A stretch of 64,000 nucleotides of DNA from Candidatus Moranbacteria bacterium GW2011_GWE2_35_2-. GTDB lineage: Bacteria > Patescibacteriota > Minisyncoccia > Moranbacterales > UBA9337. Where the stretch lies: NCBI GenBank assembly GCA_000990585.1, contig LBQD01000003.1, forward strand, positions 79,504-143,503, in the 5' to 3' direction. Below, in pieces: positions 10,663 to 48,748 of this stretch. The translations under genes and the position numbers were made by a program. Numbering within the stretch: position 1 is the first letter of the stretch; every line of letters begins with the position of its first letter. A model generated the notes under the pieces. That model had not been told where the DNA came from. It saw only the letters and a list, made by a program, of their open reading frames with translations, and searched no databases.

Positions 10663-13600
10663 TTAGGTTAATTCAATTTTTGCGCCGGTGGTTTTTTCTA
10701 TTTTTTCGATTAAATCTTTTCCTATGGCGACGCTGTACGAGGTTTCCATTTTTGATTCATTAAGCGAAAGATAGATTCTGGTTTTTCCGAATTTGCAGAC
10801 GCCGAGAGTGTCGGAAATATTTTTGAGGGTCATTTGGCTGGATTCGGGAGGTAAAATAATAGTAAGCTTTTCATTTTTAATTGGTGCATCCTTTTTTTCA
10901 AAATGTCCGTTGCTTTTTTGCGTGTGCAAAACTCTTTTGAAACTTTCCAATTCTTGCTGGTTTATTTCCTTGGCGTCTTCAGCTAGGATTTTGAAAACCC
11001 CGTCTTTGTCCGAAAGTTTTCCTTCGACCAAAACAATGCGGTCTTCTTGCCAAATTGAGCCAATCCGTTCCAGCGTTTTGGGAAAAATTAGAAGTTCTAT
11101 TTTTCCCTTCAAATCTTCAATCGTGGCAAACATCATTTCTTGATGGCGCTTGGTGATGATTTTTTTGACCGCGCTGATAACTCCTCCGACTTTTACCATC
11201 TGCCCGACCATATTTTGGTTCAATGCGTTGACGGGAATCGCCATTTGGTTAAAATATTCCTGATAATCAGAAACCGGATGTCCGCTTACATATAGTCCCA
11301 GCAGTTCTTTTTCCCATTGCAATTTTTCCTTCTTTTCCGCCGGAGCTGCCGGTTCGAGTTGAATTTTTGCTTTGGAAAGAATTTCTTCGCCAAAGAGGCT
11401 GGTTTGACTGGAATTTTTATTTTTTTGGATATTCTTGGAAAAAGCCAGAATAGTTTCTATATTTTCCAGAATTTGATTCCGCTCCGCCATTTGATCAAGC
11501 GCGCCCACTTTTGCCAGCGCTTCAATTGATTTTTTATTCAAATCCCGAATAGTGATTCTTTCAAGCATATCTCCGAGACCTGCATATTTTCCATTTCTTT
11601 TTCTTTCAGCGACAATTTCATGAGCGACCGGCTTGCCCACATTTTTTATGGCATTGAGTCCAAAGCGAATTTTTTCGTTATTATCAGTTCCCTTAACAAC
11701 CGCGAATTCTTCAAAGCTTTCATTGACATCCGGAGGCAAAACTTCGATTCCCATATGTTTGGCTTCATCCACCTCGATAGCGATGCGTTCGATGTTATCT
11801 TGGTCGGAAGTCATCAGTGCCGCCATAAACTCTGCCGGATAATGCGCTTTGAGATATGCTGTTTGATAACCGATGAGTCCATAGCAGGCGGCGTGGGAAT
11901 TATGAACCACGAAATCATTGGCGACAAAGTTGTGAGTGCTTTCGATGGTCAAATCGTAGGTCTTTTTTCTGCCTGATTTTTCGATGGAAATTATTTTATC
12001 CCAATAAATATCAGAGTTTCCCAATTCTAAAAGTTTTTTGCTTTTGAGTATTTTTCCGATTTCAAAAACAGTTTCCCGTAAAAAACCAACCTTCCTTTTG
12101 TCCTTGAAAAACAATCTTTCGGCAAAGTTGTATTCTTGGGAAAATTCTTTAGCGGAATATCCGGCATTTATAATTTCTTTTCTGATAATTTCGATAATTT
12201 CGGATGGAATAATGTCGCGGCTTCCGCGCGCGGAATAATTTTTTAATTGCCCATTTATTATTGGGTGGTTTTTGACGGCTTGTTTGATGTTTTTTAGTTT
12301 TTCTCCGATCAGATATTTTCCGGGACCTTTGTAGAAATTTTCGATATTATTGTACCTGTTTATGGTAAGTGTATATCCGATTTTTATCGTGTTTTTATAT
12401 TTAAATTTTTTCTTATGAATCGTGCCGATAATATTCAGCCGTAAAAGCAAATGTTGGAGCTGATGTGCCATTTTTTTTGAAGATGTCGCATAAAATATTT
12501 GCGGATATTTTCGGGAAAGACTCACACATCCGTCTCCTTGAAACATTTTTCCAATAAGCAAAGACAAGTCTTCGGAGTCTAACTTGAAAGCCAATTCTGG
12601 AATCTCCTTTTCGGTGGCTCTTTTTCCGTGAATTCCGATTGATTTTATCCAATCAACTGCTCCCGACTTTTCTTTCAGATTGATTCTTCCTGCATAAATC
12701 GAGGTTGCCGGTTTGCTTTTGTTGACTGTCGCTTTCGTGTTTTTAAACTTTTGCAAATTCAAAGTATATTCCTTTAATTCTGCCTTGTTTTTTGAGTAGA
12801 AATAGAAGCTGTGCGGATGGCACAAATTTCCTTCGGCCAGCAAGTATCCCAAGATAATCAATTTGTATTTCTCCATTTTTATTCCCTTAAAATTTAAAGG
12901 AAGGTTTCGCGCCATGGCTATTCTTTCTCCTGCCTTTATTTCTTCCAATTTTTTCCATCCGGAAATTGTCAAAAGCGGATGGTTGGCGGTGGCTTTGATT
13001 GTTTTTCCCAGCGCGGTTTTTATTTTAAAAACATCTTTCGTTCCATTGAAAAAAACTTTTGTTATTTTTCCATTTCCAAGTTTCAAATCATTTTTCAATG
13101 TTAAAATTTCGGGAAGTTTTTTTTTGTTGTTGTGCCAGTTATATAATTCTTCAAGGCGGAATTGCTTGCCGCTTTTTGCGTCGGTTATGAGCGTATCTCC
13201 ATCCAAGCATCGATTAAAGCCGTATCCGGCGAACGGTTCGATAAAAGCGAAAACATTTTCGGCAGTTTTTTTGTCGATTCCATTTTTTACGCATCCTTCA
13301 ACGAATTTTATTTTCTGTTCCTGAATTAAATTTAAAATTTTCTTTCCTACCGCTTTGCGAAGAACGTCAGCTTCTCCCAAGGTAAAACCGGCAAGCTGTT
13401 GTGCCATCTGCATAACTTGTTCTTGATAAACTGCTACGCCATAAGTTTTTTTCAAAATCGGTTCCAGTTTTGGATGCAAATAAGTTATCTTTTTCAATCC
13501 ATGTTTGCGCGCGATAAAGTCCGGTATCCAATCCATCGGTCCGGGGCGGTAAAGCGCTACCATAGCAATCACATCTTCAAGATTATTCGGCATTAATTGC

Positions 13601-15468
13601 TTGAGATATCTTTTCATTCCACTGCTTTCCAATTGAAATACTCCCGTGGTATTGGCGTGTTGCAAAAGTTCGTAGGTTTTTTTGTCATCCAGCGGAATAT
13701 TTTCAATGTCGATTTCCAACCCCTTTGTTTTGCGGACAATATTGAGAGTATTTTGGATGATGGTAAGATTTTTCAGTCCCAGAAAGTCCATCTTGAGAAG
13801 TCCGATTTTTTCCACATAGCTGGACTTGGTGGAAGATGAATATTGCGTGACTAATCCGTCGCCCCCTTTGGCGAGAGTTTGTAATGGGGAGTAGGCAGTA
13901 ACAGGTTCTTTGGTAATTACTACTCCGCATGCATGCATTGAAGCGTGGCGGGCAACACCTTCCAATTTTTTGGCGCTGTCGATCAGCTTTTTTCCATTAG
14001 GGTCGCTTTCATAAAGTTGCTTGAATTCTTTTGCATCTTCAAGCGCTTCTGCGATATCGGAAAACATTGGAATCATTTTGGCAGTTCGATCGCAAAAGCT
14101 GTACTCCAGGCCAAGTGCGCGTCCGGCATCGCGAATAGCGGCGCGAGCGGCCATCGTTCCAAAAGTAATAATCTGTGCTACGTGATCGTGGCCATATTTT
14201 TTTCGCACATAATCCAAAACTTCATCGCGGCGGTTGTCGGCGAAATCCATATCGACATCGGGCATAGATATTCTTTCCGGATTGAGAAATCGTTCAAAAA
14301 GCAGATCATACTTTATTGGGTCGACATTGGTTATTCCGATAAGATATGAAACAAAACTTCCTGCGGCACTTCCGCGACCCGGTCCGACGACGATTCCTTG
14401 CTGTTTTGCCCAATTGACAAAATCTTGAACGATAAGGAAGTATGATGGAAATCCGGTTTTTTCAATAATTTTCAGTTCGTATTCCATGCGATCGCGGTGT
14501 TCTTGCGTGATGTTTCCTTGATATTTTTTTTCGAGTCCTTTTTCAGTAAGATGGCGGAGATAAGTGACGTCCGTATATCCATCCGGAACGTCGAAATGAG
14601 GGAGTTGCGTTTCTCCGAGTTTGATATGAAAATCGCATTTATTGACAATTTCCTGGGTATTGGCGATAGCCTCGGGAGTATTTTTGAACGCACGTTGCAT
14701 TTCTTCCGGAGATTTCATCGAGAGATCGAAATCCATCAAGCTCATGCGGTTTTTTTCTTGGACTTTACGGTTGGTTTGGATACAGAGAAGAATGTCTTGT
14801 ATCTCAGCATCTTCTTTGTTGACATAATGAATATCTCCGGTGGCAACAACAGGAATTCCGGTTTTTTTGGAAATTTCCAGCATTCCCTTATTGGCATTTT
14901 TCTGTTCATTGTTGTTGGGATGATGTTGAAGTTCCATGAAAAAATTTCCTTTGCCAAAAATTTGTTCATATTCGCGAGCGACATCCCGCGCTTTTTCATA
15001 ATTTCCATTATTGATTTCATTGGGAATTTCTCCGGCTAGGCATCCGCTCATCGCAATCAGTCCGGTGGAATATTTTCTCAAAGTTTTTTTGTCAATTCTG
15101 GGCTTGTAATAGAATCCTTCCAAGTGGGCGATGGAAACCAGATGCATCAGATTTTTGTATCCATCTTCATCTTTGACCAAAAGAGTGAGGTGGTGCATTT
15201 TTCTATCAAGAGCTGTATTATTTTTGCTGGTTAAATCATGGGAAACATACATTTCGCATCCGATAATCGGTTTGATTCCCCGTTCTTTGGCTTTGATGGA
15301 AAATTCCACTGCGCCATACATCACGCCGTGGTCGGTGAGTGCCAGCGAGTCCATTCCCATTTCTTTGGCGCGGTCAAGAAGCTCATCGATTTTTGCCAAA
15401 CCGTCCAGGAGTGAATAATGGCTATGGACATGCAAGTGAGTAAATTTTTTATTTGAATTTTCCGGCAT
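10663..15468 (-). CDS. dnaE: DNA polymerase III alpha subunit DnaE containing an intein
   Basis: PHP domain (HLHVHSHYSLLDG). Polymerase core. FAGYGFNR|...|SHAACYG is split by a 437-aa insertion. The extein is about 1164 aa. Confidence 0.9.
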   Translation of the reverse strand: MPENSNKKFTHLHVHSHYSLLDGLAKIDELLDRAKEMGMDSLALTDHGVMYGAVEFSIKAKERGIKPIIGCEMYVSHDLTSKNNTALDRKMHHLTLLVKDEDGYKNLMHLVSIAHLEGFYYKPRIDKKTLRKYSTGLIAMSGCLAGEIPNEINNGNYEKARDVAREYEQIFGKGNFFMELQHHPNNNEQKNANKGMLEISKKTGIPVVATGDIHYVNKEDAEIQDILLCIQTNRKVQEKNRMSLMDFDLSMKSPEEMQRAFKNTPEAIANTQEIVNKCDFHIKLGETQLPHFDVPDGYTDVTYLRHLTEKGLEKKYQGNITQEHRDRMEYELKIIEKTGFPSYFLIVQDFVNWAKQQGIVVGPGRGSAAGSFVSYLIGITNVDPIKYDLLFERFLNPERISMPDVDMDFADNRRDEVLDYVRKKYGHDHVAQIITFGTMAARAAIRDAGRALGLEYSFCDRTAKMIPMFSDIAEALEDAKEFKQLYESDPNGKKLIDSAKKLEGVARHASMHACGVVITKEPVTAYSPLQTLAKGGDGLVTQYSSSTKSSYVEKIGLLKMDFLGLKNLTIIQNTLNIVRKTKGLEIDIENIPLDDKKTYELLQHANTTGVFQLESSGMKRYLKQLMPNNLEDVIAMVALYRPGPMDWIPDFIARKHGLKKITYLHPKLEPILKKTYGVAVYQEQVMQMAQQLAGFTLGEADVLRKAVGKKILNLIQEQKIKFVEGCVKNGIDKKTAENVFAFIEPFAGYGFNRCLDGDTLITDAKSGKQFRLEELYNWHNNKKKLPEILTLKNDLKLGNGKITKVFFNGTKDVFKIKTALGKTIKATANHPLLTISGWKKLEEIKAGERIAMARNLPLNFKGIKMEKYKLIILGYLLAEGNLCHPHSFYFYSKNKAELKEYTLNLQKFKNTKATVNKSKPATSIYAGRINLKEKSGAVDWIKSIGIHGKRATEKEIPELAFKLDSEDLSLLIGKMFQGDGCVSLSRKYPQIFYATSSKKMAHQLQHLLLRLNIIGTIHKKKFKYKNTIKIGYTLTINRYNNIENFYKGPGKYLIGEKLKNIKQAVKNHPIINGQLKNYSARGSRDIIPSEIIEIIRKEIINAGYSAKEFSQEYNFAERLFFKDKRKVGFLRETVFEIGKILKSKKLLELGNSDIYWDKIISIEKSGRKKTYDLTIESTHNFVANDFVVHNSHAACYGLIGYQTAYLKAHYPAEFMAALMTSDQDNIERIAIEVDEAKHMGIEVLPPDVNESFEEFAVVKGTDNNEKIRFGLNAIKNVGKPVAHEIVAERKRNGKYAGLGDMLERITIRDLNKKSIEALAKVGALDQMAERNQILENIETILAFSKNIQKNKNSSQTSLFGEEILSKAKIQLEPAAPAEKKEKLQWEKELLGLYVSGHPVSDYQEYFNQMAIPVNALNQNMVGQMVKVGGVISAVKKIITKRHQEMMFATIEDLKGKIELLIFPKTLERIGSIWQEDRIVLVEGKLSDKDGVFKILAEDAKEINQQELESFKRVLHTQKSNGHFEKKDAPIKNEKLTIILPPESSQMTLKNISDTLGVCKFGKTRIYLSLNESKMETSYSVAIGKDLIEKIEKTTGAKIELT
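11899..13209 (-). mobile_element. intein with LAGLIDADG homing-endonuclease domain in DnaE
   Basis: Starts CLDGDTLI (block A) just after GFNR. LAGLIDADG-like LIILGYLLAEGN and LLIGKMFQGDGCV. Ends ...FVVHN followed by S. Splits the conserved GFNKSHA motif. Confidence 0.8.
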
Positions 15469-15907: not shown

Positions 15908-16600
15908 ATGAGCCAAATAAAAAAGAGGTGTGTTATGTCGAAAAGCAAGAAGCAGGTTGAGGCGATTGTGTCGGCGATGGGAGTTTTCACGGCGATTATT
16001 TCCACTCTCGTTGAACTGGTCAAAAAGTTCGGCGGAACGATGGAAAACATCTATCGTTTGGCGATTCCGGAAGGGCTTGTGACCCTGGAGGAGGTTGCGC
16101 GGGTGATCGTCGGGGCTGTTAAAGTTAAAAACGAGTTTCTCTGCCTCATTTTCGGTGGTGAAAATCTCATTATCGACGAGTGCAATGGTCGTGAAATTCT
16201 TGCCGATGCCAGTGATGTATTTGACTGGATCGACAGCGATTTTCGGAGCTGGGGTGCGGATGAGCAGGGACCAGCTACTAAAAAAACTCCCGTTCAGGTT
16301 TACGAGCTGGAAAAGGATGGGAAATTTCCTCAGATTTACGGCGCGCATTCGTCTGATCTGGATAAGCTCTGTCTAACCCAGCACCAGATTAAAAAATTTG
16401 TGCAGAAGTGTCGCGATTGGTTGAGAACTGATGGATACGGAACGTTTTTCTTATTCAAATCCAAGGGACATTATTTCGTCGCCGGTGTGGGCTTTGATTC
16501 CGGTGGCAGGCTTTGGGTGAGCGTGCACCGGCTCGAGAATGTGTATGTCTGGGATGCCGAGAATCGATATCGCTTTGTGTTTCCGCAACTGGACATCTAA
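15908..16600 (+). CDS. DGR variable (target) protein, 230 aa, C-terminal VR
   Basis: Its 3' 116 bp is a near-copy of the downstream TR, with adenine-specific differences. Higher GC than the surroundings. Confidence 0.7.
   Translation: MSQIKKRCVMSKSKKQVEAIVSAMGVFTAIISTLVELVKKFGGTMENIYRLAIPEGLVTLEEVARVIVGAVKVKNEFLCLIFGGENLIIDECNGREILADASDVFDWIDSDFRSWGADEQGPATKKTPVQVYELEKDGKFPQIYGAHSSDLDKLCLTQHQIKKFVQKCRDWLRTDGYGTFFLFKSKGHYFVAGVGFDSGGRLWVSVHRLENVYVWDAENRYRFVFPQLDI
16475..16590 (+). repeat. DGR variable repeat (VR)
   Basis: 116-bp ungapped alignment to 16908-17023. 15 mismatches, 13 at TR adenines. Confidence 0.75.
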
Positions 16601-16907
16601 CACTTTGTCCTATTGTGGCGCTTTGTCCCTTGGACTCTTTGACGCTTCTGCGTTTTGAGTTCAAGGGATTTTTTTGTATAATAAAATTGCAATCCTGGAA
16701 ATATCCGCGGTCAAGGCTTCGGGTCAAGGTTGTTGGAAAAATATATTCCGGAATTTTGTCGGACAAGTCTTGCAAAAGAGTGAAGATATTTTTTTAAAAA
16801 TAAAAACAGACAGTTGGTGCGGTAAATTGGAGAACTTTTAGGGTTTCAAATAAAATTCAATCCAGAGAGTATTCAATGGATGGTGGTATTGATGATTTGC
16901 CGCATAC

Positions 16908-17023
16908 TTCGTCGCCAATGTGAACTTTAATTCCGATGGCAGGCTTAAGGTGAGCGTGAACCGGCTCGAGAATGACAATGTCTGGAATGCCGAGAATCGA
17001 CATCGCTTTGTGTTTCCGAAACT
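16908..17023 (+). repeat. DGR template repeat (TR)
   Basis: Noncoding copy of the VR. Variable positions are AAY/AAR codons (aat, aac, aat, aag, aac, gacaat, aat, aaa). Confidence 0.75.
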
Positions 17024-17036
17024 TTCTGTTTTTCTC

Positions 17037-17339
17037 TCATCCATTCGATGAGAGTTTTTTATCCAAACCTTTTTTCCAACCGCCAAGCATTCTTCCGATT
17101 TCTTCCAATTTCTCGGAAAGGTCGATATATTTTTCATTGGGAATAAGTTTGTTTTCCCAAGCGGTTTGAGTAAAAAATTTCAAAACATCCAGTCTGGAGA
17201 TAGTCTTGCTTAAAAATATTATTTTATGTTCCGGCGGGAGATATGAAGCAGTAAAGGAAAGTTCCAGGATTTCAAGAAAAAGATTGTCAACTTTTCTCCC
17301 AATTCCATAGCGTTCGGTCTTGGGAAAATCACGATGCAA
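17037..17339 (-). CDS. avd: Avd-like four-helix-bundle accessory protein (23S-IVS protein family)
   Basis: FPKTERYGIGRKV...NEKYIDLSEKLEEIGRMLGGW matches the FPKEEKYGL...MLNgLi pattern. The ORF probably extends upstream to a non-ATG start. Opposite strand to the RT. Confidence 0.55.
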   Translation of the reverse strand: MHRDFPKTERYGIGRKVDNLFLEILELSFTASYLPPEHKIIFLSKTISRLDVLKFFTQTAWENKLIPNEKYIDLSEKLEEIGRMLGGWKKGLDKKLSSNG

Positions 17340-17391
17340 AATTAACCAAAAAGAATAAGATTCTTTAAGCTTATGAATTACAACAGGGACG

Positions 17392-18429
17392 TTGCCGGGG
17401 GGGGGTTATAAAAGTCATAGTTTTGCTTTTCCGGACAAAAGCAAAAGTGCTTTTGATGGGAAAAATAAATTAAAAATTACATTTGAAGAAATCATATCTT
17501 TGGAAAATCTGCTGGAGGCTTGGAAAGAATTTGAAAAAGGAAAGAAAAACAGAAAAGATGTGCAGGAATTTTCAATGAATCTGATGGATAATATTTTTTC
17601 TCTCCATCAAGATCTTCTCAATCATACCTACAAACACGGCGGTTATCAAGCTTTCAAAATCAATGATCCCAAGCCTAGAGATATCCACAAAGCAAAAGTC
17701 AGGGACAGGCTTTTGCATCACGCCATCTACCGAAAACTCTATCCGTTTTTCGACAAAACTTTTATTTCCGATTCATATTCTTGCCGAATAAACAAAGGCA
17801 CACACAAAGCGATTGAAAAATTTCGAAAGTATTTTAACAAAGTAAGTCAAAACAACACGAAAACTTGTTATGTTCTCAAATGCGACATCAAAAAGTTTTT
17901 CGCCAGTATTGACCACGAAATTCTAATTTCAATCTTGAAAGAACATATTCCGGATGAAAATATTTTGTGGTTATTGGTGGAAATTATTGAAAGTTTTCAT
18001 ATTTCAAAACCCCTCCCCAGCCCTCCCCTTGAAAAGGGGAGGGGGATTGGACTGCCGCTGGGCAATTTAACCTCGCAATTGTTTGTGAATATTTATATGA
18101 ACAAATTTGACCAGTTCGTCAAACATAAACTGAAAGCCGAATATTACATTCGCTATGCCGACGATTTTGTGTTTTTGTCGCAAGACAGAAAATGGTTGGA
18201 AGATTTGATTCCAAGAGTCGGCAAATTTTTAGGCGATGAATTAAAACTCAAATTGCATCCGAATAAAGTTTACATCAAAACTTTTTCTTCCGGCGTGGAT
18301 TTTTTGGGAATAATCAATTTTCCGCACCACAAAATCCTGCGGACGAAAACGAAAAGAAGAATGATGAAAAAAATATTTCTCAATCATAAGATGTTGAGAG
18401 AGGGATTGATTTCAGAAGATAAATTTTAA
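17392..18429 (+). CDS. DGR reverse transcriptase
   Basis: RT domains with YADD (IRYADDFVFL). DGR-type motif IGLPLGNLTSQLFVNIYMNKFD. About 330 aa. Start uncertain and likely non-ATG. Confidence 0.85.
   Translation: MPGGGYKSHSFAFPDKSKSAFDGKNKLKITFEEIISLENLLEAWKEFEKGKKNRKDVQEFSMNLMDNIFSLHQDLLNHTYKHGGYQAFKINDPKPRDIHKAKVRDRLLHHAIYRKLYPFFDKTFISDSYSCRINKGTHKAIEKFRKYFNKVSQNNTKTCYVLKCDIKKFFASIDHEILISILKEHIPDENILWLLVEIIESFHISKPLPSPPLEKGRGIGLPLGNLTSQLFVNIYMNKFDQFVKHKLKAEYYIRYADDFVFLSQDRKWLEDLIPRVGKFLGDELKLKLHPNKVYIKTFSSGVDFLGIINFPHHKILRTKTKRRMMKKIFLNHKMLREGLISEDKF
17397..17405. repeat. G9 homopolymer between divergent avd and RT
   Basis: gccGGGGGGGGGtta, unusual in an AT-rich genome. Lies in the 5' region of both genes. 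Confidence 0.8.
18009..18050. repeat. GC-rich palindromic module (CCCTCCCCTT-GAA-AAGGGGAGGG) inserted in frame in the RT gene
   Basis: Perfect 10-bp arms. Encodes PLPSPPLEKGRG just before the conserved IGLPLGNLTSQ motif. Confidence 0.7.
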
Positions 18430-18536
18430 TCAAAGTTTGCAATCGTATTTGGGGATTCTGAGGCATTGTGATGGGTGGGGGATTGAGAAAGAGATAATGA
18501 AAATATCAGAATAAAAAAGTAAAGTTTTTTGATAAA

Positions 18537-18971
18537 TTATTTTTTCAAGAGTTTTAAGATTTCTTTTTTGAAATCTTTCAAATCGACAATTCTTTCTTGA
18601 AGATAGTCATATACTTTTTCTTTGTCTATTTTTCCATATTCGTGAACCAGGATATTTCGAAATCCGACAATCCCGTCCAATCTCGATGCCAATTTTTTGG
18701 AAATTATCTTCTTCTCGAAAAGCAAAGAAATCGCTTCCTGATTTTCTTCCGGACGTTCGAATTTTTCTTCTATAATAATCATCTGGACAAGATCAATGAT
18801 GGTCTGGATCGATAGTTGCAAATATCTTTCAGCAAGTCCGAAAAAATGAAAATCACTGACGAAAGCAACTTTGTTTTTTTTTGTTTCCTTGGCGAGCGCT
18901 TCAAGATATTTTATATATTCGTCCAAGTTTTGAATTTTGTCGAAAAATTTCTTCTTGATTATTTTTGTCAT
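18537..18971 (-). CDS. hepT: HepT-like (DUF86) toxin
   Basis: R-x4-H-x-Y motif (FRNILVHEY). About 144 aa. Directly downstream of the MntA-like gene. Confidence 0.7.
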   Translation of the reverse strand: MTKIIKKKFFDKIQNLDEYIKYLEALAKETKKNKVAFVSDFHFFGLAERYLQLSIQTIIDLVQMIIIEEKFERPEENQEAISLLFEKKIISKKLASRLDGIVGFRNILVHEYGKIDKEKVYDYLQERIVDLKDFKKEILKLLKK

Positions 18972-18983
18972 AAAGTTTATTTT

Positions 18984-19403
18984 TTAATTTCGATTCAGTT
19001 CTCTTTTTAAATAGGCTTCGTTATATTTTTCGATAAAGGGCGCGAAATCGTAGTAATCATTCATTGTTTTTAATTCAAATTCGAGCTTTTCCCCGTGATC
19101 TTTTGCGTAAATCAGTTTTCCTTCTTTGATGATTACGAATTTGAAAAGGATGGATTTTGTGTCATTGAGAATGACGACCTCTGTTTCTTTTTTGAATATT
19201 TTCGAAAGCTCGGAAATTATTTTGCATCGAATATCAAATCTTTTTTTCGCGTCGATATCTTTTGACAGCATTATGGCAATATCGATATCGCTGTTTTTTA
19301 TCGCTTTTCCGGTAGCTTGCGAACCGAATAAATACGCAAAAACAACCTTGTGTTTGGCAAAGATTTTCGAAAATTCCCCAGTTTTGTCTTTGATAAGTTT
19401 CAT
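18984..19403 (-). CDS. mntA: MntA-like minimal nucleotidyltransferase antitoxin
   Basis: GS-x9-DxD motif (LFGSQATGKAIKNSDIDIAI). Confidence 0.7.
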   Translation of the reverse strand: MKLIKDKTGEFSKIFAKHKVVFAYLFGSQATGKAIKNSDIDIAIMLSKDIDAKKRFDIRCKIISELSKIFKKETEVVILNDTKSILFKFVIIKEGKLIYAKDHGEKLEFELKTMNDYYDFAPFIEKYNEAYLKRELNRN

Positions 19404-28775: not shown

Positions 28776-29615
28776 ATGAAAAAAATTTTTACAAAAAATA
28801 AAACAACCATTGTATTTTTCTCTTTCTGTTTGTTGTTTGCAGGAGTGGCCGGCGCTGCTAATAATGCAAACAATTCGAATATTGAAGATAAAAAAGATCA
28901 AATGCAACAAATAAAAGATGATCGTAAGGCAACAAGCCAAGATCGTATTTGTGATAGAATGGAAGAATTGGAGGGAAAAATTCAAACGAAATTAAAAACG
29001 AGAAGTGAAAATAGACAACAATTTAGAATAGAAAGCGAAAAACAACTTGAAGCAAAATTGCAGGAGCGTGAAGATGAATTAACCCAGAGACGTCAAGTTC
29101 GTGATCAATATCGAAGTGAATTCTATGCTCGATTACAAGAAAGAGTAAATAATCAACAACAAAAAGATGCCGTATCAGAATTTAAAAATGTTGTTGAGAA
29201 TGCTGTTAATACCAGAAGAGAAGCAGTTGATGATGCTTTGGATATTTTTCATGACGGAGTTCAGCAAGCTGTAGATTCAAGAAAAACTTCCATTGATAAT
29301 TTGATTACGGAATATGGAAAAAATAGAGAGCAATTAACAGCCGAAGTTCGTAAATTTTGCGAAACAAGCGGGGATGCCGTAAAGGCGAGACAAACTCTTC
29401 AAAATAGGTTGCAGCAAGCGAGAGAGGAATTTAAAGTTGATCAAAAAGAAGTTTCGAGCGTGGGGGATACAGTAAAAGAGTTGGCGCAAATAAAAAATGA
29501 AGCAATAAGGAAAGCTTCAGAAGTGTTTATGTCCGTGCTTAAAGATGCTCAAGAAAAATTGCAAACAGAATTAGGGGGGGCTGTCGTAGATAATGAGACT
29601 TCGATTTCCGAGTAG
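28776..29615 (+). CDS. hypothetical secreted coiled-coil protein
   Basis: Signal peptide. Q/E/R-rich heptad-like sequence. Confidence 0.4.
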   Translation: MKKIFTKNKTTIVFFSFCLLFAGVAGAANNANNSNIEDKKDQMQQIKDDRKATSQDRICDRMEELEGKIQTKLKTRSENRQQFRIESEKQLEAKLQEREDELTQRRQVRDQYRSEFYARLQERVNNQQQKDAVSEFKNVVENAVNTRREAVDDALDIFHDGVQQAVDSRKTSIDNLITEYGKNREQLTAEVRKFCETSGDAVKARQTLQNRLQQAREEFKVDQKEVSSVGDTVKELAQIKNEAIRKASEVFMSVLKDAQEKLQTELGGAVVDNETSISE

Positions 29616-48685: not shown

Positions 48686-48748
48686 GGGGGGGTTCTCGCC
48701 CTAGCGGGCGACCACCCGTTAGGGTGGGATTCCCCGTAGTCGCTGCCA
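48686..48748 (+). other. tRNA-Glu T-arm/3'-acceptor-like fragment interrupted by the 32-nt module, ending in CCA
   Basis: GGGGGGTTC-[module]-GATTCCCCGTAGTCGCTGCCA against tRNA-Glu CGGGGTTCGATTCCCCGTAGCGCTA. Confidence 0.6.

Follow-up and report, generated by a model that had tools for sequence, protein, structure and literature searches.

The canonical diversity-generating retroelement (DGR), that of Bordetella phage BPP-1, is ordered mtd-avd-TR-brt and combines an LGxxxSQ-type reverse transcriptase (RT), a protein of the bAvd family and a template repeat (TR) whose mismatches with the variable repeat (VR) fall at TR adenines. Loss of Avd from the reconstituted BPP-1 DGR brought the repair frequency down to about 1e-9, and the same 2026 reconstitution study called the regulation of DGR mutagenesis in nature "an exciting frontier" (PMC12875486). 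Simple-sequence repeat (SSR) contingency loci are a second, separately known kind of system, in which a non-triplet repeat in the 5' coding region turns a gene ON or OFF by frameshift, as do the poly-G/C tracts in open reading frames (ORFs) of Campylobacter jejuni and Neisseria and the tetranucleotide repeats of Haemophilus influenzae. We analyzed a 64-kb stretch of DNA (hereafter the window) from a 622-kb scaffold of a Rifle-aquifer Candidatus Moranbacteria genome, a member of the Patescibacteria or candidate phyla radiation (CPR), in which a run of nine G residues lies inside a DGR, between an avd gene on the minus strand and an RT gene on the plus strand arranged head to head. We consider it likely that this G tract is a contingency locus at which slipped-strand phase variation governs Avd and, in the window lineage, RT as well.

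Tract length and the avd and RT reading frames

The nine G residues occupy positions 17397-17405, within TTGCCGGGGGGGGGTTATA (17392-17410), at the 5' end of avd on one strand and in the RT reading frame on the other, 374 nt beyond the TR. No other run of G or C in the window, whose G+C content is 37%, exceeds seven; runs of G7 lie at 29574-29580 and 48686-48692. Base composition predicts 0.056 G runs of nine or more. A previous sequence-only reading had described a G9 run at this place between divergent avd and RT genes, and both its position and its description are correct. The features needed to follow the reading frames are these:

17397-17405, either strand: G9/C9 homopolymer, the candidate repeat switch, read as Pro codons on the avd strand and as Gly codons on the RT strand
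17037-17396, minus strand: avd core, from just below the tract to the stop codon, matching PF22296 (bAvd) in the G8 model
17406-17418, minus strand: 5' segment of avd with its ATG (17418-17416), encoding MTFI(T), which joins the frame of the core only at G8 or G11
17373-17375, plus strand: upstream RT ATG, antisense of an avd His codon, in the frame of the RT body only at G8 or G11
17392-18429, plus strand: RT ORF as assembled, with a TTG start and 345 aa, crossing the tract; Pfam RVT_1
17456-17458, plus strand: vestigial canonical RT start, an ATG matching the MKIQL.H start of relatives, one base off the frame of the RT body

At G9 the avd strand reads CCC CCC CCC. As had been noted earlier, ORF inspection finds no in-frame ATG for either gene at this length, and the avd frame is open upstream of the TTG at 17339, through IHKLKESYSFWLIL and the tract (PPP), up to a TAA (17406-17408) that directly precedes the tract. 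The ATG at 17418 (MTFIT...) is one base out of phase, and a TTG inside helix 1, which starts the listed avd ORF (17037-17339, minus strand), is the sole remaining avd start. A tract of G8 or G11 joins the ATG to the core and yields an Avd of 126 or 127 aa. The bAvd profile (PF22296) scores 53.2 bits on the G8 model, above its cut-off of 40; residues 13-117 correspond to positions 3-106 of its 107, that is, to the whole four-helix bundle. Because the profile aligns from residue 13 of this model, the TTG-started ORF available at G9 lacks about half of helix 1.

The RT frame follows the same lengths. At G8 or G11 the ATG at 17373 is in frame; at G9 the TTG at 17392 is the only start and the tract is read Gly-Gly-Gly; at G10 no start exists ahead of the conserved N-terminus. 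The earlier suspicion that tract length sets the reading frame is therefore confirmed, and the check that it suggested, whether other lengths restore ATG starts, comes out positive for both genes: G8 and G11 provide a full-length, ATG-started Avd and an ATG-started RT. Judged from these frames, G8 and G11 would be ON states for avd and RT in the window organism, and G10 and the G9 of the window would be OFF states for avd.

Repeat polymorphism, and the repeat site in related loci

Other assemblies of the window organism carry tracts of different length, G10 in six of them and G11 in one, and the G9 allele is present in three public records. The six G10 assemblies come from different runs and different pipelines; over 3964 nt, five match the window perfectly and the sixth shows five mismatches. 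Rifle sequencing runs underlying the assemblies include SRR1658472, SRR1658473 and SRR6487348 and those of ERZ27254726 and ERZ28564033. The G11 contig (L089, assembled with MEGAHIT) has no mismatch over 7059 nt and encodes an in-frame Avd, MTFITPPPGNVPVV..., together with an ATG-started RT of 352 aa (P0003), MNYNRDVAGGGGYKSH.... In six of the seven other assemblies the tract is thus the sole variable site across 4-7 kb. A second species behaves likewise: L003, with an in-frame G9, was compared with eight assemblies of its species, all of which carry an out-of-frame G10, and besides the tract it differs from four of them by 1-5 mismatches per 1887 nt. The RT of this species (L003/L112) is intact. 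Repeat number is therefore polymorphic among otherwise identical genomes, with both ON and OFF alleles, in two species, as it is in contingency loci.

Short or interrupted repeats did not vary. A G7 tract is the same in 4 assemblies, and an interrupted G6AG3 tract (GGGGGGAGGG; L121-L129, the species of P0049) is the same in nine assemblies from unrelated samples, as expected if such repeats are stabilised. The G6AG3 tract is out of frame with the avd ATG, a GTG being available at helix 1. Both GGGGGGAGGG and the in-frame GGGGAGGAG of L008 look like locked alleles. A look-up made via RT protein P0010 gave no information on tract length, since that RT call includes the tract and thereby presets it.

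A pattern scan of metagenome contigs from the Joint Genome Institute (JGI) recovered one more contig, L082, with G9, a different TR and an avd 97% identical to that of the window; a dN/dS comparison with it, on 4 synonymous and 3 non-synonymous changes, was uninformative. This contig stops 8 nt past the tract, and gaps of N abut the tract in L067 and L075. Assemblies tend to break at the tract, which is consistent with read heterogeneity.

The same site was then compared between species. Searching one genome per GTDB species gave 80 loci with an RT 55-73% identical to that of the window, from CPR genomes (Moran-, Yanofsky-, Azam-, Niyogi-, Jorgensen-, Levyi-, Kaiser-, Doudna-, Zambryski-, Nomura-, Wildermuth-, Adler- and Falkowbacteria, and others). 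RT homologs as a whole number roughly 8000. A scan of viral contigs found no relatives. Wherever both genes were contained in the fetched DNA, avd and RT are divergent (75/75 loci). A pure run of G8-G14, with a mode of 9-10, occupies the homologous avd site in 59 of these 75, the G always on the RT strand. Seven further loci carry there, instead of a G run, (GA)10-16, (CT)10, (GT)8-10 or (TGGC)6-8, which are unrelated in sequence. None of the repeat units found at the site is a multiple of three, so that within the avd ORF changes in unit number shift the frame. Repeats are concentrated at this position, with 66 in 12 kb of site sequence vs 3 in 436 kb of flanks, and the flanks hold one G/C run of eight or more.

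We then scored the frame of the avd core relative to its upstream ATG in the 64 repeat-bearing loci without gaps. The core was in frame in 13, whereas 27 would need one unit less, 21 one unit more and 3 either; no locus lay beyond repair by a single unit. Allowing GTG and TTG starts raises the in-frame number to 17. Where the repeat is absent or degenerate and the 5' end of avd is not deleted, avd was always in frame from an ATG (8/8 loci); in one of them, L008, the site sequence GGGGAGGAG encodes APPL. This difference between repeat-free and repeat-bearing loci indicates that the avd ORF truly crosses the tract and that it is the repeat that breaks it. The best avd match per locus in tblastn searches is moreover a single uninterrupted stretch, mostly covering most of the core.

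RT is less uniformly affected. Of 60 loci, 46 have an RT ATG downstream of the tract (median distance 19 nt, range 8-52 nt), and since RT there starts after the tract only avd would be toggled. The avd ATG and the His-7 codon of RT are often reverse complements, the 5' ends of the genes overlapping. Ten loci, the window among them, lack an RT ATG downstream of the tract, and the ATG-started RT ORF begins on its far side; in all 10, the tract lengths that bring RT into frame are precisely those that do so for avd. One of them (L050) is ON for both genes as assembled, as is the closest relative of the window, L120, which was fetched separately and has the same layout with a G7 tract and an intact RT. 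In these lineages a single tract would gate both genes, judging by their frames. The sequence-only reading had left open whether RT, Avd or both are toggled; both ORFs are involved in the minority to which the window belongs (the 10 loci and L120), and avd alone in the 46 relatives. In the window lineage and L120 the RT start has apparently moved upstream across the tract, the position of the relatives' ATG (17450-17475) being one base out of frame. We rejected a homology-based argument for an N-terminal RT extension, because the tblastn similarity found upstream of the tract in some relatives mirrors antisense avd coding and is not independent evidence.

A kept position, non-triplet units, convergent motifs, frames that a single unit can repair, intact cores, stabilised interrupted tracts and length polymorphism together form the signature of a contingency locus. 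The slipped-strand switch that the sequence-only reading had proposed is supported as far as sequences go, with G9, G10 and G11 found in one organism and with relatives that have variable lengths, scrambled frames and other non-triplet repeats at the same place. In the mechanism that we propose, the tract is a hypermutable SSR inside the 5' coding end of avd, where slipped-strand mispairing at replication would add or remove a G. Gain or loss of a G would change the frame of the four-helix-bundle core relative to the avd start codon, and Avd, and hence DGR mutagenic retrohoming, would go ON and OFF stochastically and reversibly within a population. An OFF tract should silence the DGR because Avd is essential for retrohoming in the system studied (PMC12875486). 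In the window lineage, in which RT starts beyond the tract on the other strand and the two ORFs are co-phased, one tract would toggle both. The likely role of such a switch would be to freeze a useful VR variant and to limit the cost of mutagenesis. On balance we also lean towards a wider picture, in which a large clade of Patescibacteria DGRs keeps its hypermutation under a stochastic non-triplet repeat switch in the first codons of avd, with Avd and RT co-toggled in some lineages and with populations that would be mostly OFF, their variable protein frozen, and contain a few diversifying cells.

Competing explanations

Several observations weigh against a phase switch. Of four species with pure tracts of nine or more, two are monomorphic (G9 in 6/6 and 10/10 assemblies). 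Heterogeneity within populations is deduced from consensus assemblies, and Illumina or assembler error at G9-G11 could cause some of the one-base differences. A TTG, GTG or ATG, mostly a TTG at a conserved L-P-V motif, occurs just downstream of the tract in 26 of 58 loci (about 45%), and codons near this motif could permit Avd initiation independent of the tract. About 80% of loci are OFF, which leaves fewer in frame than the one third expected under neutrality (binomial p = 0.016 with ATG only, p = 0.15 with GTG and TTG allowed) and could also mean decay. The co-phasing of avd and RT may partly follow from their codon-aligned antisense arrangement rather than from selection for co-switching. 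Finally, the window DGR itself carries lesions, which involve two further features:

18424-18427, plus strand: T4 run in which one extra T truncates RT before the conserved C-terminal motif; the site is the same in seven assemblies
18428-18514, plus strand: rest of the RT C-terminus, NQSLQSYLGILRHCDGWGIEKEIMKISE*, in the +1 frame; in tblastn searches the matches of the repaired model reach residues 362-379 in most relatives

The extra T, in GAT AAA TTT TAA within 18418-18514, removes the C-terminal motif, whose consensus F-x-QSLQSYLG-x-L-x-HC is recognisable in 20 of 20 homologs inspected. It is identical in all seven assemblies checked and is therefore taken to be real and fixed. Either the mutation inactivates RT, or UUU-UAA acts as a +1 shift site. 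The window RT is thus not intact, its canonical ATG being out of frame and its C-terminal motif cut off. The VR is, in addition, identical in the G9, G10 and G11 consensus assemblies, giving no sign of ongoing diversification. Given the RT frameshift and the invariant VR, the DGR of the window genome may be dead and its tract drifting neutrally.

Among the explanations that dispense with a phase switch, constitutive recoding survives best, and we regard it as unlikely. A polymerase that stutters while transcribing C9-C11, or ribosomes whose tRNA-Pro slips by +1/-1 on CCC-C, would supply a steady share of in-frame Avd at any tract length and no population switch would exist. C runs are indeed +1-prone sites for tRNA-Pro, the tracts are long (mode 9-10), frames are spread about evenly over the three phases as if genomic length hardly mattered, and consensus length is stable in two species. 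The (GA)n, (CT)n, (GT)n and (TGGC)n repeats of seven loci are, however, classic substrates of DNA slippage and not known recoding sites, and DNA length itself differs among otherwise identical assemblies. Nor do the loci show the fixed direction, conserved slippery motif and conserved stimulatory element of programmed frameshifting or transcriptional slippage, 27 of them needing a -1 and 21 a +1 correction. It is to be noted that recoding and a switch are compatible, and slippage during expression may make OFF states leaky.

Decay, in which the repeat is a mere mutational hot spot without adaptive role and most avd genes, that of the window included, are on their way to pseudogenes, appears improbable. 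It would account for the large out-of-frame majority, for the displaced start and fixed 3' frameshift of the window RT and for the invariance of the VR. True pseudogenes would gather more lesions, whereas avd matches are uninterrupted and every out-of-frame locus is one unit from repair. Neutral hot spots would also be interrupted or lost, whereas pure tracts have been kept at a single site among loci with RTs as distant from that of the window as 55-73% identity, and the differing repeat motifs arose independently at that site.

A structural or promoter element, whereby non-B DNA between the divergent genes would set promoter spacing or absorb supercoiling and the effects on frame would be incidental, is less credible still. 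G runs, (GT)n, (GA)n and the other repeat types found are non-B-prone motifs, and divergent starts flank the tract, the RT ATG following it at a median distance of 19 nt; in Haemophilus hifA/hifB, a single repeat between divergent genes acts on promoters. The avd ORF nonetheless contains the tract, relatives without a repeat have the corresponding codons in frame, and scrambled frames in 80% of loci would be left unexplained unless Avd were dispensable, whereas it is essential in the DGR studied (PMC12875486).

A sequencing or assembly artefact is scarcely conceivable: although the gaps and the contig end beside the tract, and differences of just one or two bases between assemblies, would fit one, 59 independent assemblies, produced in many laboratories and with many assemblers, have the tract at the homologous site, which rules out assembly error as the source of the tract itself, G10 was recovered six times by different pipelines and G9 in three public records, and the other two RT frame defects are the same in all assemblies, so that the data are not generally indel-prone.

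Three other roles were considered for the tract and rejected. It is not part of the TR RNA or a GC element like that of the initiation of mutagenic homing (IMH), since it lies 374 nt past the TR, with a terminator-like hairpin after the TR, and unrelated motifs replace the G run elsewhere; at 8-52 nt from the RT ATG (median 19 nt) it is too distant in most loci to be an RT Shine-Dalgarno sequence; and it does not form the spacer of any sigma-70 promoter-like match in the window.

The surrounding retroelement and its relation to known systems

The remaining features of the element are the following:

15908-16600, plus strand: DGR target gene with the VR at its C-terminus; ORF of 230 aa (221 aa in the public annotation)
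16472-16590, plus strand: VR, a 119-nt direct repeat 87% identical to the TR
16905-17023, plus strand: TR, which pairs with the VR
16828-16856, plus strand: promoter-like site upstream of the TR, a candidate TR-RNA promoter, TGGAGA-17-TAAAAT, with 9/12 matches, by consensus only
17034-17054, plus strand: terminator-like hairpin and T-run directly 3' of the TR, overlapping the avd stop codon (fold z = -2.7)
17421-17446, no strand assigned: AT-rich hairpin with a perfect 10-bp stem, TTTTGCTTTT-CCGGAC-AAAAGCAAAA, flanked by the ATG of avd and the vestigial one of RT (minus-strand fold z = -3.7)

The assignment to the DGRs rests on both the repeats and the RT. TR and VR differ at 16 positions, 13 of them TR adenines, and the substitutions are thus focused on A. 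The RT matches Pfam RVT_1 (E = 3e-23), falls in the DGR clade and contains LPLGNLTSQ, a motif that we take to be typical of DGR RTs. Several non-A changes are commonly reported in CPR DGRs (PMC5758913). The target gene (15908-16600) has no Pfam match, and a search with Rfam found two tRNAs and no other RNA family in the window.

The promoter-like site and the terminator-like hairpin on either side of the TR suggest that the TR is transcribed separately as a short RNA, whereas BPP-1 has an avd-TR-spacer RNA. The AT-rich hairpin stands just upstream of the avd ATG, is lineage-specific and missing from the relatives compared, and explains the longer spacing between tract and RT in the window lineage. 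Within RT, a GC-rich palindrome, CCCCTCCCC...GGGGAGGGG (18005-18049), is in frame and encodes SKPLPSPPLEKGRG; at the same loop the RT homologs P0007, P0011, P0020, P0030 and P0087 have differing Pro/Gly-rich inserts, which suggests that a small palindromic element has inserted here repeatedly or that the loop is hypervariable. Directly downstream of RT (18537-19403) lies a toxin-antitoxin pair of MNT (nucleotidyltransferase) and HepT, which also adjoins RT in another species (the P0010 group, L096-L100). The gene for DnaE, the DNA polymerase III alpha subunit (10663-15468), contains an intein with a LAGLIDADG endonuclease domain.

A permanently active DGR keeps overwriting useful variants. If our reading is correct, a heritable and reversible repeat switch on Avd, and in places on RT, would allow a few cells of a population to diversify while the others keep the result locked, and it would be the first built-in genetic ON/OFF control described for DGRs. 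It would also bring phase variation to uncultivated, ultra-small environmental bacteria, extending contingency loci from host-adapted pathogens to the CPR, and offer a natural design for switchable DGR-based tools of directed evolution. The idea could be tested on existing metagenomic reads, by setting the spectrum of tract lengths against VR diversity in each sample.

DGRs and repeat-based phase switches are both known, and what would be new here is their combination. A full-text literature search, whose coverage did not extend to the main paper on CPR DGRs (Paul et al. 2017, PMC5436926), returned no published repeat switch in a DGR, and no such switch is described for the BPP-1, Legionella and Treponema DGRs in the literature searched. 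The window element shares with the BPP-1 DGR the type of RT, the bAvd-family protein and the TR/VR mismatches at TR adenines; it differs in that avd is inverted and overlaps RT head to head, that the TR lies upstream of avd with its own terminator-like hairpin, and that a repeat interrupts avd.

Among systems outside the DGRs, the slippage-rescued homopolymer frameshifts of endosymbiont poly(A) tracts and insertion sequence (IS) transposases likewise involve long homopolymers in ORFs whose genomic frame is often wrong, albeit with A/T runs instead of the G/C runs found here, which are replaced by di- or tetranucleotide repeats in some lineages. The (TA)n repeat of H. influenzae hifA/hifB also governs two divergent genes at once, by altering the -35/-10 spacing of overlapping promoters, whereas the G tract would act on the translational frame of two antisense-overlapping ORFs. 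Phasevarions, which depend on phase-variable DNA methyltransferases, are similar in placing a repeat switch on an enzyme system with secondary, population-wide effects, one layer of variation thereby controlling another; the output here would be mutation of the VR of one target gene and not a genome-wide change in methylation or expression. The likeness to SSR contingency loci extends from the placement and frameshift logic of the repeat to the variation of its length between near-identical genomes, its stabilisation by interruption and the change of motif between lineages at a constant position. The hosts, in contrast, are free-living or episymbiotic groundwater Patescibacteria and not host-adapted pathogens, and the gene concerned is the cofactor of a mutagenic retroelement rather than a surface or restriction-modification gene, with a tract that in a subset of loci is coding on both strands.

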